A DNA stretch of 64,000 nucleotides from Escherichia phage vB_EcoM_G4498. The stretch lies in sequence record NC_054918.1; one strand, given 5' to 3'. Made by a program: the position numbers and the translations under genes. Shown here one piece after another: positions 20,729-25,545 of this stretch (its first letter is position 1; each line of letters opens with the position of its first letter). The notes under the pieces are model-generated. The model was not told the DNA's origin. It made no database searches and was given only the letters and a program-made list of their open reading frames with translations.

Positions 20729-20747
20729 AAGGCCCGAAGGCCTTTAG
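20729..20747 (-). terminator. Hairpin terminator downstream of gene 30 / small ORF
   Basis: AAAGGCCTTCGGGCCTTT followed by TTTAATTTT on minus strand. Confidence 0.65.
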
Positions 20748-20932
20748 TAATCTAGTGGTAAGAGAGTACGATATATTTCAAACTTTGGTCCTTTTTCATA
20801 GGCATCAAATGTTTCTGTAAATTTATTATAAGCGTATGCATCTACAAATTCGAGAATGACTTGTGATACAGAAGTAGAAACATCTCCACCTTCTTTTTGA
20901 GCAATGACAATTGTTTCTAAGTAAGCTTTCAT
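20744..20932 (-). CDS. Hypothetical 62-aa protein coupled to gene 30
   Basis: ORF start overlaps gene 30 stop (ATGA); its stop lies inside the terminator hairpin. Confidence 0.45.
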   Translation of the reverse strand: MKAYLETIVIAQKEGGDVSTSVSQVILEFVDAYAYNKFTETFDAYEKGPKFEIYRTLLPLDY

Positions 20933-22392
20933 AAACCAGTTACCTCATGAAAATCACCAAATACATCCTCGAATGTATTAGCTTTAGTTTTATCTTCACG
21001 TAAACGAATCGCAATCGGAAGAAATAATTTAACGTAATCAGTGCGGCCATCAGATTTTAACCAACCGTTGCATTCGCACTCTAGAATTTTTCCAATATAA
21101 TAATTTTGGTTTTCCATAATGCGAGTACGGTCAAGTTCATGCGATTTTACACCGGCTTTATCTTTTAAGCCTGAACCAGCATTTACCTTAATTTTTCCAC
21201 ACTCTGATTCAAGAATAAATCCACCCGCTTTAGTAGGGTCTTTACGGTGAGGATAAATTCCTACAATTTTTAAATCAACATCAATTACTTCTTTAAATTT
21301 ATAGAGATTTTTTGAACGAGCATTTTCCCACAATCCATCGGTATTTTTGAGAATAATACCTTCAAGACCTTGGTCAATATACTTTTTATAAATTACCTTA
21401 GCTTCATCTAGGTTATTTACTACCTGGTTTTCAATTAAAATTACTTTATCATAACCTGATGTCATTTGTTCTAGTTTAGAAAAACGTACATCATATTTCA
21501 AACGAAATGCAGGAAGACCGTATATTTCTACCAACGGGACATAATCCCAGACCTGAAACTTCATGCATTGAGCTTCTTTTTCAGAAATGGTTCCCTTTAA
21601 AGATTTATTGGCGATGCCATTAGATGCAGTACGTGATTCAGCTACTTCGGCGAATTCTTTAGCTTTACTAATTTCAGGATAAGCATCAAAAAGAAAATCT
21701 AGGCCTTCTGGCTCCTTTTCAACTTGCTCATGGTATACCAATTCGCCATCAATTAACACACCTTCTGGATGAATCTGGCGAGCTTCTGCAGTCATTTTGA
21801 TTAACTCTTCCTTAAGAAGATCTAATCCTAGATATTCATTACCAGCTCGTGATAAAAGACGAACATCATCTAATTCATCACCTCTGACTTCAGCAAAACA
21901 CCGAGCTCCATCAGCTTTTAACTGGGCAAAGGCTGGAAATTTGATATTCTTATTAATGCCTTTTTCATCATAAGAACTTGCAAGCATTTGAGGTTGTTCA
22001 GGAATTAAACCTGGCCAAACTTTGTTTGCAATAGATACTGAAGCACCGCATTCAAGGTCTCGCATCATCACCCGACGCAAAACTTCAACATCATCTTTTT
22101 TACCGTCAGTAATATATCCAGTTAATTCCTCAATTGCCGCATTTCCAGTCAATTTCCGAGTAGCTAACGTGAATTCAATGAAGTCAAGCATATCGGTAAG
22201 AGTCAACATTCCAAAACTCTGGGTAGCAATACCTGGTTTAGGCCATTTCTTGATATAATACTGTAACCCACGAGAATAAGTCAGACGATATACTCGTTTA
22301 AGCAATTCATTATCTTTATTCTTTTCAAGAATTGCTTGCTTCTGCTTAGTTGAACCAATAGATGCTATTTCGTTCAGAATTTTAAGAATCAT
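20929..22392 (-). CDS. 30: ATP-dependent DNA ligase gp30
   Basis: 487-aa ORF MILKILNEIASIGSTKQKQAILEKNKDNELL...; matches T4 DNA ligase; adenylation lysine motif (KADGAR). Confidence 0.97.
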   Translation of the reverse strand: MILKILNEIASIGSTKQKQAILEKNKDNELLKRVYRLTYSRGLQYYIKKWPKPGIATQSFGMLTLTDMLDFIEFTLATRKLTGNAAIEELTGYITDGKKDDVEVLRRVMMRDLECGASVSIANKVWPGLIPEQPQMLASSYDEKGINKNIKFPAFAQLKADGARCFAEVRGDELDDVRLLSRAGNEYLGLDLLKEELIKMTAEARQIHPEGVLIDGELVYHEQVEKEPEGLDFLFDAYPEISKAKEFAEVAESRTASNGIANKSLKGTISEKEAQCMKFQVWDYVPLVEIYGLPAFRLKYDVRFSKLEQMTSGYDKVILIENQVVNNLDEAKVIYKKYIDQGLEGIILKNTDGLWENARSKNLYKFKEVIDVDLKIVGIYPHRKDPTKAGGFILESECGKIKVNAGSGLKDKAGVKSHELDRTRIMENQNYYIGKILECECNGWLKSDGRTDYVKLFLPIAIRLREDKTKANTFEDVFGDFHEVTGL

Positions 22393-22658
22393 TGTTCATC
22401 CTTTAGAGTTTGGTTTACAGCTCTATTATAAATCAATTCATCATTAAGCTCAGTCAAAGACCTGTGGTACGTGGTTCTAACTTTATTTCCTTGCATCCAG
22501 TGCTTGACGTAAATGAAACCTTGCTCTACACATTTTTTAAAAATTCGTTCGTCTTTTTGAGCTCGGAATTCTGGATTGCATCTAAAAAATTGATTTACGT
22601 GACCGTAATCACGTGTAGTATTACCTTCATTTTCATAAATAGTATGAACAACAAACAT
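22389..22658 (-). CDS. Hypothetical protein, positional equivalent of 30.1
   Basis: 89-aa ORF, overlapping stop/start with neighbours. Confidence 0.55.
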   Translation of the reverse strand: MFVVHTIYENEGNTTRDYGHVNQFFRCNPEFRAQKDERIFKKCVEQGFIYVKHWMQGNKVRTTYHRSLTELNDELIYNRAVNQTLKDEQ

Positions 22659-23497
22659 TAGAATGCTCCTTGGAAAATATTATCACCACTAGTAGGTCTA
22701 TTATACAAATACTCTATGCCACCAGGTTTAATATAGTTCCATGTCTGAAACGGATGTGTCTGATATGGATGATATAGATGATTATAAGGATTAAATCCAG
22801 GAGTTCTCCAGGTAGTGTTCCAAGGAAAAGAATCGTTTTTGATCATCTTCTCAATTACATCTTTTATAGCTTTTTCACTATCAAAACTTTCTTTATTTTC
22901 CTTTGGTGAAAAAAGCTTATTTTCTACATCATTCCATGTATAAACTCGCTGTGCAGTTTTTGGAATATTGTCACGCTCTCCTCGAGCCATCCAATAAACA
23001 GGAACATTTAATATTTCACTCGCGTGATCGCAGTGGTGAGCGAGATCGTCAATATAACAAATTACGTTATATTTCTCTTTTGCCTTTTTGAACAACTCTT
23101 CTTTTGAAGAATCATGACCACACATCAATACTTCTGAGAAGGCACCAGGAAAAAGAGCATTCAAATTAAATTGACGATTCAGCAGAGCGTCAATAGAATC
23201 ACCCAATGCTGTAACAGCTACAAAATTATAATCTTCTTTTAATTTGTTAATTACACACAGGGCATCTTTATATGGAGACAAGTAACGAATAAAATCTGAA
23301 CGATTGTATTTTTCAATTAACTTGACGCCAAGTTCTTCATCACAATTAAAGAGTTTACCAGGAGAAATAAATTTCTCATCTTGGATCATTTTTAAAATAT
23401 GTTCTAACGGAAGATTATATTTCTGAGCAAAATAAGGAAGGCCTGATTGCCAGCTTAAACATACTCCATCAATATCAGTTAAAATAGTAGGCTTCAT
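22658..23497 (-). CDS. HAD-superfamily hydrolase-like protein, positional equivalent of 30.2
   Basis: 279-aa ORF; N-terminal ILTDIDGV (DxDG phosphatase motif). Confidence 0.65.
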   Translation of the reverse strand: MKPTILTDIDGVCLSWQSGLPYFAQKYNLPLEHILKMIQDEKFISPGKLFNCDEELGVKLIEKYNRSDFIRYLSPYKDALCVINKLKEDYNFVAVTALGDSIDALLNRQFNLNALFPGAFSEVLMCGHDSSKEELFKKAKEKYNVICYIDDLAHHCDHASEILNVPVYWMARGERDNIPKTAQRVYTWNDVENKLFSPKENKESFDSEKAIKDVIEKMIKNDSFPWNTTWRTPGFNPYNHLYHPYQTHPFQTWNYIKPGGIEYLYNRPTSGDNIFQGAF

Positions 23498-23958
23498 AGA
23501 GAGTCTCTTAATAGGTTTAACACATCAATAAATTCAGCTTCGGTTAATATTGTATCATCTTTTGTTAGACCACTAGCCATGCTGTGCTTCAAAACTTTTC
23601 CTTTCGAGGCGTGTAATGCATCACGAAAGCCCTTGTTTTGGATCGCTGCTTCAAAATATGCATTTGTGTATAATTCTTTCCATGCTGGGGAGTATCTTGA
23701 AAACGGAACTCCAAGCCAGAAGAGGGTCCCACGGTCCTGAGCTCTAGCATAAGACCTTCCAGCTTGTTGGGCGGCAAGCCCGGATAACCCAAATATACGA
23801 CGTTGTTGTTCAGCATTTTTCACCTTGCATCCTTGGAGGAATCCTTCAAGACCTCCGAATTGAATACCATCCATGACGAAAGGCCATTGGGCGAAATTAC
23901 TTAATGCACACGATGGCCATCTAAAATTGCTTCTAATCTCTAACTCAGACATTTTCAA
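23494..23958 (-). CDS. NADAR/YbiA-like protein, positional equivalent of 30.3
   Basis: 154-aa ORF with ...LSNFAQWPFVMDG... and E-x-F-L-Q-G-x-K resembling the YbiA/NADAR signature (by eye). Confidence 0.55.
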   Translation of the reverse strand: MKMSELEIRSNFRWPSCALSNFAQWPFVMDGIQFGGLEGFLQGCKVKNAEQQRRIFGLSGLAAQQAGRSYARAQDRGTLFWLGVPFSRYSPAWKELYTNAYFEAAIQNKGFRDALHASKGKVLKHSMASGLTKDDTILTEAEFIDVLNLLRDSL

Positions 23959-24151
23959 TACTTATAATTTCAACATCAGCCCAATGACCATAGCAAGGAA
24001 GACGAAATTCAACTGGCCAGTTAGGGTCCTTTTCTAATATAATAGACTTAACTTGTGGTTCTTCATGTTCATCAGTATATGGATTTTTATCTGTTACTTT
24101 ATATGTGACCTTAATGTACTGAATTCCAAAAATCTTATTAATTATATTCAT
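23945..24151 (-). CDS. Hypothetical protein (30.x series)
   Basis: 68-aa ORF, overlapping neighbours. Confidence 0.5.
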   Translation of the reverse strand: MNIINKIFGIQYIKVTYKVTDKNPYTDEHEEPQVKSIILEKDPNWPVEFRLPCYGHWADVEIISIENV

Positions 24152-25105: not shown

Positions 25106-25438
25106 TTATTTTACTACTTTCCAATGCTGCATGTCAAGTTTACCAACTTTTTTCATCTTCTCAATTAAGCGTTCGGCACGTTGGCGAGCTGTAACATAAT
25201 ACCATTCACCTAATTCATTTTGTTCAATTTTTCCAACGATTACTGTATTCAATTCATAAATCCAACCAGTAAAGAAATTATGAACTTGAATTGTAAAGGT
25301 GAAATCTGTTCCCATACCTTCTGTTGTTTCTACTTCAATAATATCACCTTCAACTGCCGTTAAGAACCACATAGTTTCATCATATTTACCATTGAAGCAT
25401 TTAGTTTTAACTGCAGCGTTCAGATTAATCGTTTTCAT
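25106..25438 (-). CDS. Hypothetical protein (30.x series)
   Basis: 110-aa ORF; AAGGAG SD; early promoter upstream. Confidence 0.55.
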   Translation of the reverse strand: MKTINLNAAVKTKCFNGKYDETMWFLTAVEGDIIEVETTEGMGTDFTFTIQVHNFFTGWIYELNTVIVGKIEQNELGEWYYVTARQRAERLIEKMKKVGKLDMQHWKVVK

Positions 25439-25520: not shown

Positions 25521-25545
25521 AAAAGGACTCCCGAAGGAGTCCTCA
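25521..25545 (-). terminator. Strong intrinsic terminator
   Basis: GGACTCCTTCGGGAGTCC followed by TTTTTATTTT on minus strand. Confidence 0.7.

Follow-up and report, generated by a model that had tools for sequence, protein, structure and literature searches.

Genes 30.2 and 30.3 of Escherichia phage vB_EcoM_G4498: the NADAR AdfN and a putative NT5C-like phosphatase encoded ahead of the DNA ligase gene

Two adjacent open reading frames (ORFs) beside the DNA ligase gene of Escherichia phage vB_EcoM_G4498 raise the question of what their products do and whether they do it together. They lie in the 64,000-nucleotide stretch of record NC_054918.1 that was analysed here (the window, position 1 being its first letter). 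A preliminary description, made by eye from the sequence alone, had taken the 279-aa ORF for a HAD-superfamily phosphatase and the 154-aa ORF for a NADAR (YbiA-like) protein, and had suggested that the pair could be a nucleotide-salvage or anti-defence module. The phage is a Tequatrovirus (T4-like) and the two ORFs are T4 genes 30.2 and 30.3. We think it probable that AdfN, the product of 30.3, and an NT5C-like gp30.2 take part in one clean-up route in which the phosphatase has an accessory role.

Gene 30.3 and the NADAR AdfN

Both ORFs, with all the motifs quoted for them in the preliminary description, are present on the minus strand at the coordinates it gave; the product of the larger begins with MKPTILTDIDGV and that of the smaller carries LSNFAQWPFVMDG and EGFLQGCK. 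Their placement downstream of the ligase gene holds in plus-strand coordinates only, as in the direction of transcription they are upstream of it. The 154-aa ORF is real but uses a TTG at 23958, and the accepted start, as in the T4 annotation, is two codons later, at the ATG at 23952, giving 152 aa; the published numbering of gp30.3 (E36, K43) counts from this ATG. The 1.9 kb around the pair matches Escherichia phage APTC-EC-2A at 99.9% identity and the RB3/RB5/T4 group at about 98%. At the protein level gp30.2 shares 274 of 279 residues (98%) with its T4 counterpart and gp30.3 shares 149 of 152 (98%, aligned end to end), the three substitutions in the latter (A47V, H114Q and M125I) leaving the catalytic positions untouched. 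By tblastn, 1,438 phage records contain gp30.2 and 1,509 contain gp30.3, and both ORFs are real genes and not chance ORFs.

In T4, gp30.3 is AdfN, a guanine-ADP-ribose DNA glycohydrolase that counters DarTG1 (Johannesman et al., Nat Commun 2025, PMC11825919). When adfN is deleted, T4 and T2 no longer plaque on DarTG1 hosts, and ectopic AdfN suffices to rescue RB69, which is sensitive to DarTG1 because a frameshift removes the last 15 residues of its own AdfN; the E36A and K43A mutants give partial rescue only, and the purified protein takes ADP-ribose off DarT1-modified DNA (PMC11825919). An independent study found the T4 NADAR to be active in vitro on guanosine-ADP-ribose and inactive on thymidine-ADP-ribose (PMC11125620). 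The preliminary description had proposed assaying the protein for relief of DarT toxicity and for removal of ADP-ribose from guanine in DNA, and the published work on the 98%-identical T4 protein gives a divided result: ADP-ribose is removed from DNA guanine and DarTG1 is countered during infection, but DarT1 toxicity in uninfected cells is not relieved. T5 and Bas25 were helped weakly, and the authors of the AdfN study postulated an additional T-even factor required for full AdfN activity. That a phage NADAR reverses DarT-type guanine ADP-ribosylation was published in 2024–2025 for this very gene and is already known, so that the role of AdfN itself is nothing new; the present analysis bears on why AdfN works fully only during T-even infection.

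The gp30.3 of this phage is almost certainly AdfN. It is full length, with the C-terminal helix predicted at residues 138–151 intact, and because of its 98% identity to the T4 protein, its intact length and its retention of E36, K43 and H123 this allele is expected to have anti-DarTG1 activity as well.

At the level of sequence the relationship of gp30.3 to NADAR proteins is marginal. A Pfam scan returned PF08010 (Phage_30_3) at E 1.7e-69 in place of PF08719, which the preliminary description had expected and which does not match gp30.3 itself even at E≤1; PF08719 weakly matches three of 11 gp30.3 relatives (best E 0.0031), and scans of gp30.3 against NCBIfam and PADLOC gave nothing. PF08010 is treated in the literature as the phage NADAR clade. 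A single-sequence search of the Protein Data Bank (PDB) had YbiA (2b3w) as its sole match, at a non-significant E of 1.3, and with a gp30.3 family profile YbiA was again the top match (E 0.055), both alignments covering the same motif that had been picked out by eye.

The predicted structure makes a clear case for a NADAR fold. The AlphaFold2 (AF2) model of gp30.3 has a pLDDT of 83 and a pTM of 0.81, and a Foldseek search of the PDB with this model places YbiA (2b3w) first (E 2.7e-4, TM-score 0.59), followed by 8bat and 8bau, the NADARs of G. lovleyi and P. nicotianae (probability 0.91–0.92); these three are the solved NADAR structures, and all remaining matches are at a probability of 0.05 or less. 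E36, K43 and H123 are invariant across 11 gp30.3 homologs down to 40% identity, and a histidine in the last strand, at the third catalytic position, is the signature of the phage or gp30.3-type NADAR clade (PMC11125620). The by-eye assignment, which agrees with the published identification as AdfN, is thus upheld by the family profile, the predicted structure and these invariant residues, and the motif-level reasoning behind it proved sound.

The closeness of YbiA raises the alternative that gp30.3 is mainly a small-molecule enzyme, acting on riboflavin intermediates as YbiA does or on soluble ADP-ribose derivatives, with its activity on DNA being secondary. No solved structure is closer than that of YbiA, soluble ADP-ribose derivatives have been put forward in a comparative-genomics study as what phage NADARs mainly act on, and fusion of such NADARs to a HAD domain of mononucleotidase type (see below) would fit. 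We nevertheless consider this very improbable as the main role of the protein, and already largely refuted: de-ADP-ribosylation of DNA has been shown for the T4 protein, and plaquing on DarTG1 hosts is wholly lost without adfN.

No DarT ADP-ribosyltransferase is encoded next to gp30.3, whose neighbours are 30.4, 30.2, 30.1 and the ligase gene, and neither protein of the pair has a PADLOC match; gp30.3 is, as already published, an orphan antitoxin-like gene. Two observations on related records may be useful to others. In the methods of PMC11125620 the construct called ‘E. coli T4 phage NADAR (gp30.3)’ spans residues 1–208, T4 30.3 encoding 152; it might carry tags or derive from a different phage, and the mismatch matters when in-cell rescue results are compared between the two AdfN studies. 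Among the database proteins P0013–P0015, P0022 and P0037, short ones join a partial PF08010 to PF06919, PF06019 or PF11097, of which PF06919 and PF06019 are by name families of other genes in this region, and one of 302 aa joins gp30.2 to DUF3045 (gp30.1). These composites look like natural deletion or fusion variants of the variable 30–31 region, or artefacts of assembly or gene calling.

The putative phosphatase gp30.2

The HAD assignment of the 279-aa ORF was confirmed by four motifs, by family profiles and by the core of the AF2 model. All of the motifs that define the superfamily, DxD, S/T, K and DD, are found in gp30.2: D8, D10 and K132 do not vary in either of two alignments, of 35 and of 103 sequences, T96, D150 and D151 are kept in at least 90% of the 35, and D151 is also invariant in the 103. 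The AF2 model has a pLDDT above 90 to about residue 200 and contains the Rossmann-like core of HAD proteins, with a helical insert (residues 16–86) between the first two strands that corresponds to a C1 cap. Gp30.2 is, on the strength of these motifs and this model, very probably an active HAD phosphatase.

Beyond the superfamily, the relatives of gp30.2 point towards the 5'(3')-deoxyribonucleotidases (NT5C). PF06941 (NT5C) is the most-touched Pfam family, being matched by 29 of 103 family members at E≤0.01 (best 4.2e-10), with PF00702 or PF13419 weakly matched by eight of 35 and 17 of 103 relatives. A broad family profile aligns with 3bwv over the whole domain (E 9.1e-7), and the stretch that follows motif I (DGV..W.SGL) aligns to DGVLADFESGL of cdN (profile match to 2jao, E 0.028). 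A single-sequence PDB search with gp30.2 gave only a spurious, non-significant match to RanGAP. The best sequence and structure matches are mononucleotidases, and some source annotations call relatives ‘HAD-superfamily hydrolase’ or ‘5'(3')-deoxyribonucleotidase’, so that the HAD assignment pre-exists informally in a few database entries; in PHROGs gp30.2 belongs to a family of unknown function, and our literature search on gp30.2, its biochemistry included, found no paper.

To us gp30.2 looks like a sister family bordering on NT5C, and its motifs and predicted fold suggest a Mg-dependent phosphomonoesterase of NT5C-like kind. The capped active site would imply a small-molecule substrate, most likely a nucleoside monophosphate or a sugar phosphate derived from ADP-ribose; whether it is a nucleotide we regard as an even call.

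An exhaustive search collected 445 cluster representatives of gp30.2, mostly of 190–220 aa, and their size indicates that the conserved unit is the core domain. The remaining tail of about 80 residues (approximately residues 200–279) is aromatic-rich, variable in length, modelled with low confidence and predicted to be disordered, and it contains a motif, G-I-E-Y-L-x-x-(Q/R)-P-T, that is kept in many long homologs from several genera and looks like a docking peptide for a partner. Longer relatives (P0185, P0201, P0127, P0196 and P0106) have no extra Pfam domains, and the genomic context of P0185 was uninformative, as was that of P0240, whose contig is too short. T5 Dmp was considered as a close relative and rejected, as its hhalign alignment was confined to the region of motif I, with a probability of 1.5%, and Dmp has no Pfam match.

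Evidence for and against a joint route

The evidence that 30.2 and 30.3 form a module is mixed, and what favours it most comes from proteins in which both domains are fused. Two distant homologs of gp30.3 on viral contigs (L103, 5914–6966, and L104, 3478–4440) are each encoded by one ORF in which PF08010 is followed by PF06941, the NT5C part scoring 39–55 bits against a cut-off of 24.8. A search with the L104 protein found 1,831 related clusters, and domains and motifs were counted in the best 120 of these. Both PF08010 and PF06941 are present in all 120, and 16, of about 500 aa, also have an N-terminal KptA/Tpt1 domain (PF01885). EGFLQSLK is found in 115 of the 120, L.HS in 98, DMD[NGD] in 118 and a hydrophobic residue followed by DD in every one, and judged by these motifs both active sites are conserved across the set; the L103 copy may be inactive because the second Asp of its HAD motif I is Gly (DMGG). 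When compared with the NT5C domain of the fusions, the gp30.2 family profile gives a probability of 88% (E 3e-6).

Several of the fusions are named as belonging to Bacteroidaceae or Prevotellaceae and lie on contigs of up to 495 kb. Their neighbours include RNA ligase, an HD-phosphatase/kinase, a methyltransferase, a WYL regulator, further NADARs and an ADP-ribosylglycohydrolase (ARG), and the L104 and L112 fusions directly adjoin an ARG gene. The order of domains, NADAR and then HAD, is the order of genes 30.3 and 30.2. In favour of a link there are also, on the phage side, the ATGA overlap of the 30.3 stop with the 30.2 start and the presence of 30.3 upstream on the same strand in 36 of 80 gp30.2 loci. 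The NADARs of the fusions are of the His type, and their setting in RNA-repair operons suggests a bacterial reservoir from which AdfN may have come, as an alternative to the proposed origin from DarG1. There is also precedent for the coupling itself: in ARG-centred bacterial systems ADP-ribose-removing enzymes are coupled to phosphatases, among them a HAD 5'-nucleotidase, which were read as processing the released ADP-ribose (Iyer et al., Viruses 2022, PMC9503650, section 3.8), and an operon of Deinococcus combines a ligase, an ADP-ribose hydrolase and a phosphatase/kinase. In the literature searched, which left out the 2012 paper defining NADAR, we found no discussion of the fusion family, of the ligase linkage or of the gp30.4 signal described below; priority for the NADAR–NT5C–KptA architecture cannot be claimed.

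Because the same domain types occur in the same order, and fused, in bacterial RNA-repair and ADP-ribose operons, we see 30.3 and 30.2 as parts of one ADP-ribose or nucleotide clean-up route. In the mechanism that we favour AdfN, as shown for the T4 protein, cleaves the N-glycosidic bond that joins ADP-ribose to guanine in DNA modified by the host toxin DarT1, and this removal frees the template and allows the phage to replicate in DarTG1 hosts. After the NADAR has deconjugated the base, gp30.2 may dephosphorylate breakdown products of the released ADP-ribose, or a nucleotide. Its step would be accessory because cleavage of the bond between base and ADP-ribose would by itself relieve the block to replication. 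The association of a gp30.2-type domain with gp30.3-type NADARs in 1,831 clusters, with both domains in all of the best 120, predicts a shared pathway, and we put a genuine functional link between the two phage proteins at close to, or a little short of, an even chance.

A number of observations weigh against this reading. Gp30.2 itself has no match in Pfam, the HAD and NT5C models included, in NCBIfam or in PADLOC, contrary to the HAD match that the preliminary description had expected from a direct Pfam scan. A narrower gp30.2 profile (A1) detects the fused HAD domain in only one of the 120 proteins and, as the fused domain is a canonical NT5C, the kinship lies at the level of the family and is not orthology. 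ADP-ribose has no phosphomonoester, from which we infer that the phosphatase could act only after another enzyme, for example a Nudix hydrolase. T4 does encode such a hydrolase, NudE, for which activity on ADP-ribose has been reported.

Genomic linkage points in the same direction. Among 80 viral-contig loci with a gp30.2 homolog, 36 have a gp30.3 homolog within 6 kb upstream on the same strand, abutting in 20, and 44 have none within that distance; most of the distant gp30.3 loci lack a nearby gp30.2. In 75 of the 80 a DNA ligase gene stands on the same strand no more than 1.6 kb away (downstream in 70 and upstream in five, which are rearranged distant loci), and the ligase gene is the steadier and most conserved neighbour of gp30.2, more tightly linked than 30.3. 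Linkage to the ligase gene persists at L110, a locus whose gp30.2 relative has 28% identity and where 30.3 is not detectable; a DUF7022 ORF beside this relative was considered as a hidden NADAR and rejected (hhalign probability 7%). In phiR1-RT and Raoultella phage M12a about 55–60 kb separate the two genes, and a similar separation is probable in Klebsiella phages Mexia and Mineola, where the positions come from two different records. GenBank phages with 30.2 and with 30.3 belong to almost the same genera, and because the genes lie so far apart in some of these, co-occurrence is taken to reflect shared family membership, and adjacency to be lineage-specific.

These data are what would be expected if 30.2 and 30.3 were functionally unrelated neighbours, with AdfN acting alone or with another phage factor, gp30.2 serving the nucleotide pool or the ligase, and their adjacency reflecting conserved T4 gene order. 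The ATGA overlap between the two genes fits this alternative equally, not being special to them because all junctions in the string overlap. The reading as unrelated neighbours is poorly reconciled with a large fusion family in which both active sites are kept and the order is the same, something that chance explains badly, and we hold it to be a serious alternative, although a rather doubtful one.

The most direct data on the role of 30.2 come from the T4 transposon sequencing (Tn-seq) table of a 2025 preprint. Two genes and no others reach genome-wide significance in the presence of DarTG1, 30.3 (log2 fold change −7.25) and 30.4 (−1.79, adjusted p 0.014). Over its 71 TA sites gene 30.2 shows no change (−0.12, p 0.61, adjusted p 1.0), nor does it in the comparison of LB with M9 (−0.10), and 72 of 72 TA sites tolerate insertions, so that it is non-essential on K-12. 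T4 therefore does without 30.2 for DarTG1 resistance, for growth on K-12 in LB and for growth in M9, which again counts against a joint route and for unrelated neighbours.

The same table bears on a further possibility, namely that gp30.2 is the T-even-specific factor needed for full AdfN activity, which would explain the failure of AdfN in uninfected cells and its weakness with T5 and Bas25. Such a factor was postulated by the authors of the AdfN study, gp30.2 is encoded straight after adfN with an overlapping start, and the fusions imply that the two activities cooperate. Insertions in 30.2 should then be depleted under DarTG1, as they are not, and the Tn-seq study disfavours strong polarity, leaving room for redundancy with another factor. 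We consider a requirement of AdfN for gp30.2 highly improbable, and gp30.2 is rejected as such a cofactor on the transposon data.

Apart from 30.3, this leaves 30.4 alone among the non-essential T4 genes in having an effect under DarTG1. It is not mentioned in the text of the preprint, which argues against strong polar effects, and 30.6 and 30.7, further upstream, are unaffected in its table. Homologs of gp30.4 were found in 708 phage records, all of them enterobacterial T-even-type phages, and in the loci examined it accompanies 30.3 only in T4/RB69-like arrangements. Its signal reflects either local polarity, the loss of translational coupling through the ATGTCTGA overlap, or a gp30.4 that is the T-even factor potentiating AdfN.

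The linkage to the ligase gene suggests yet another role, in which gp30.2 removes 3'-phosphates from DNA or RNA, as the HAD domain of T4 or mammalian PNKP does, and so prepares ends for the ligase, and NADAR, HAD and ligase form a string that removes, heals and seals. Besides the strength of this linkage, gp30.2 has a weak match to a PHROGs ‘polynucleotide kinase’ family (E 0.0027), one relative matches HAD_PNKP, the Deinococcus operon provides a precedent, and the fusions stand beside RNA ligase and HD-kinase genes. Polynucleotide 3'-phosphatases are capless. In the model of gp30.2, on the other hand, some 70 residues between motifs I and II form a helical cap, and the protein thus lacks the capless (C0) active site of PNKP type, and its top sequence and structure matches are mononucleotidases. 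End healing is accordingly a role that we think improbable.

For the preferred reading, that of a common clean-up route with an accessory phosphatase, the balance is that the module suggested in the preliminary description gains from the family of NADAR and NT5C fusions and loses from the dispensability of 30.2 against DarTG1 and from an adjacency that is lineage-specific. A more ambitious form of it can be proposed, which we think unlikely as a whole. Genes 30.3 and 30.2 would be the split phage version of a widespread bacterial NADAR–NT5C(–KptA) enzyme of RNA-repair and ADP-ribose-processing operons, and AdfN would have been recruited from this machinery and not from DarG1. The substrate of gp30.2 would be an ADP-ribosylated nucleotide or a phosphorylated product of the breakdown of released ADP-ribose, and the T-even factor would be encoded in the same string, with gp30.4 the best candidate. 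If this were true, 30.4-30.3-30.2-30.1-ligase would be a phage unit that de-ADP-ribosylates, cleans up and seals, and its accessory parts would matter only against defences or hosts yet to be tried.

Layout of the locus and comparison with known systems

The locus is the 30.3–30.2 segment of a T4-type string of early genes that ends in the DNA ligase gene, with the features collected in Table 1. In coding-strand order the genes are 30.4, 30.3, 30.2, 30.1 and 30, and the minus-strand string, read in plus-strand coordinates, runs alt, alt.1, 30, 30.1, 30.2, 30.3 and 30.4 and then on to rIII, 31 and cd. Stop and start codons overlap at all four junctions between 30.4 and the ligase gene, which read ATGTCTGA, ATGA, TAATG and ATGA in turn.

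Table 1. Positions in the window of genes 30.2 and 30.3, their functional codons and their neighbours
Feature	Position	Strand	Remarks
Gene 30.3 (adfN)	23494..23952	-	152 aa from ATG; NADAR-fold DNA ADP-ribosylglycohydrolase (activity expected from T4)
154-aa form of 30.3	23494..23958	-	from TTG
gp30.3 catalytic codons	E36 23847-23845; K43 23826-23824; H123 23586-23584	-	codons checked
Gene 30.2	22658..23497	-	279 aa; predicted NT5C-like HAD core ~1-200, helical C1 cap ~16-86, tail ~200-279
gp30.2 motif codons	I D8/D10/G11 23476-23465; II T96 23212-23210; III K132 23104-23102; IV D150/D151 23050-23045	-	codons checked
gp30.2 tail	22658..22900	-	predicted disordered
ATGA overlap, 30.3 stop and 30.2 start	23494..23497	-	sequence read directly
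Gene 30.4	23945..24151	-	68 aa; phrog_2042; stop overlaps 30.3 start (ATGTCTGA)
Gene 30.1 (DUF3045)	22389..22658	-	between 30.2 and ligase; PF11243 E 2.9e-64; T4 annotation
Gene 30, ATP-dependent DNA ligase	20929..22392	-	T4 annotation
30.3', 75-aa ORF in another frame within 30.3	23589..23816	-	internal translation product in T4 annotation; intact here

Of the sigma-70-like sites on the coding strand the best, TTGACA-18-TAAAAT with 11 of 12 matches, is at 25137–25108 (minus strand), just upstream of the 30.7 ORF, and terminator-like hairpins are found on the same strand at 25544–25523 and at 20746–20727, the latter just beyond alt.1. At the level of such patterns these positions are consistent with a single transcription unit from 30.7 through the ligase gene to alt.1. 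A promoter scan found 20 promoter-like sites against 19.3 expected from shuffled sequence, and hence gave no support for an internal promoter.

Compared with known systems, gp30.3 is the same gene as T4 adfN in a sister phage, having the same length, the same E36, K43 and H123, the same genomic position and the same neighbours. With the DarG1 antitoxins, the NADARs associated with DarT1, and with YbiA (PF08719) it has in common the fold, the catalytic Glu/Lys pair and a reported specificity for guanine-ADP-ribose. It differs from DarG1 in lacking an N-terminal extension, in having His where DarG1- and YbiA-type proteins have Asp or Glu as third catalytic residue, in having no adjacent DarT, in falling below the PF08719 threshold and in being unable to replace DarG1 in uninfected cells.

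The nearest known relatives of gp30.2 are the NT5C enzymes (cdN and mdN, 2jao, 2i7d and 1mh9, and the S. epidermidis protein, 3bwv), which have a HAD core and a helical C1 cap, as in the model of gp30.2, and likewise DxDGV, an aromatic residue at +8 and SGL. The spacing of motifs I–IV is also similar to that of human mdN. Gp30.2 departs from these enzymes in having 16–21% identity to them, in falling below every Pfam threshold and in its additional 80-residue tail, modelled with low confidence, with GIEYL..PT.

For the pair, the closest parallel is offered by the Bacteroidales fusions of PF08010 and PF06941, some with PF01885, which combine the same families in the same N-to-C order as 30.3 and 30.2 and likewise have a polynucleotide ligase nearby; they are single polypeptides encoded with an RNA ligase in RNA-repair and ARG operons, whereas the phage has two genes and a DNA ligase. 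The ARG-centred systems follow the same logic of a deconjugating enzyme with a phosphatase for the released ADP-ribose, but were proposed to be host systems, built on ARG, against viral ADP-ribosyltransferases (PMC9503650), whereas the present pair is phage-encoded and relies on a NADAR for deconjugation.

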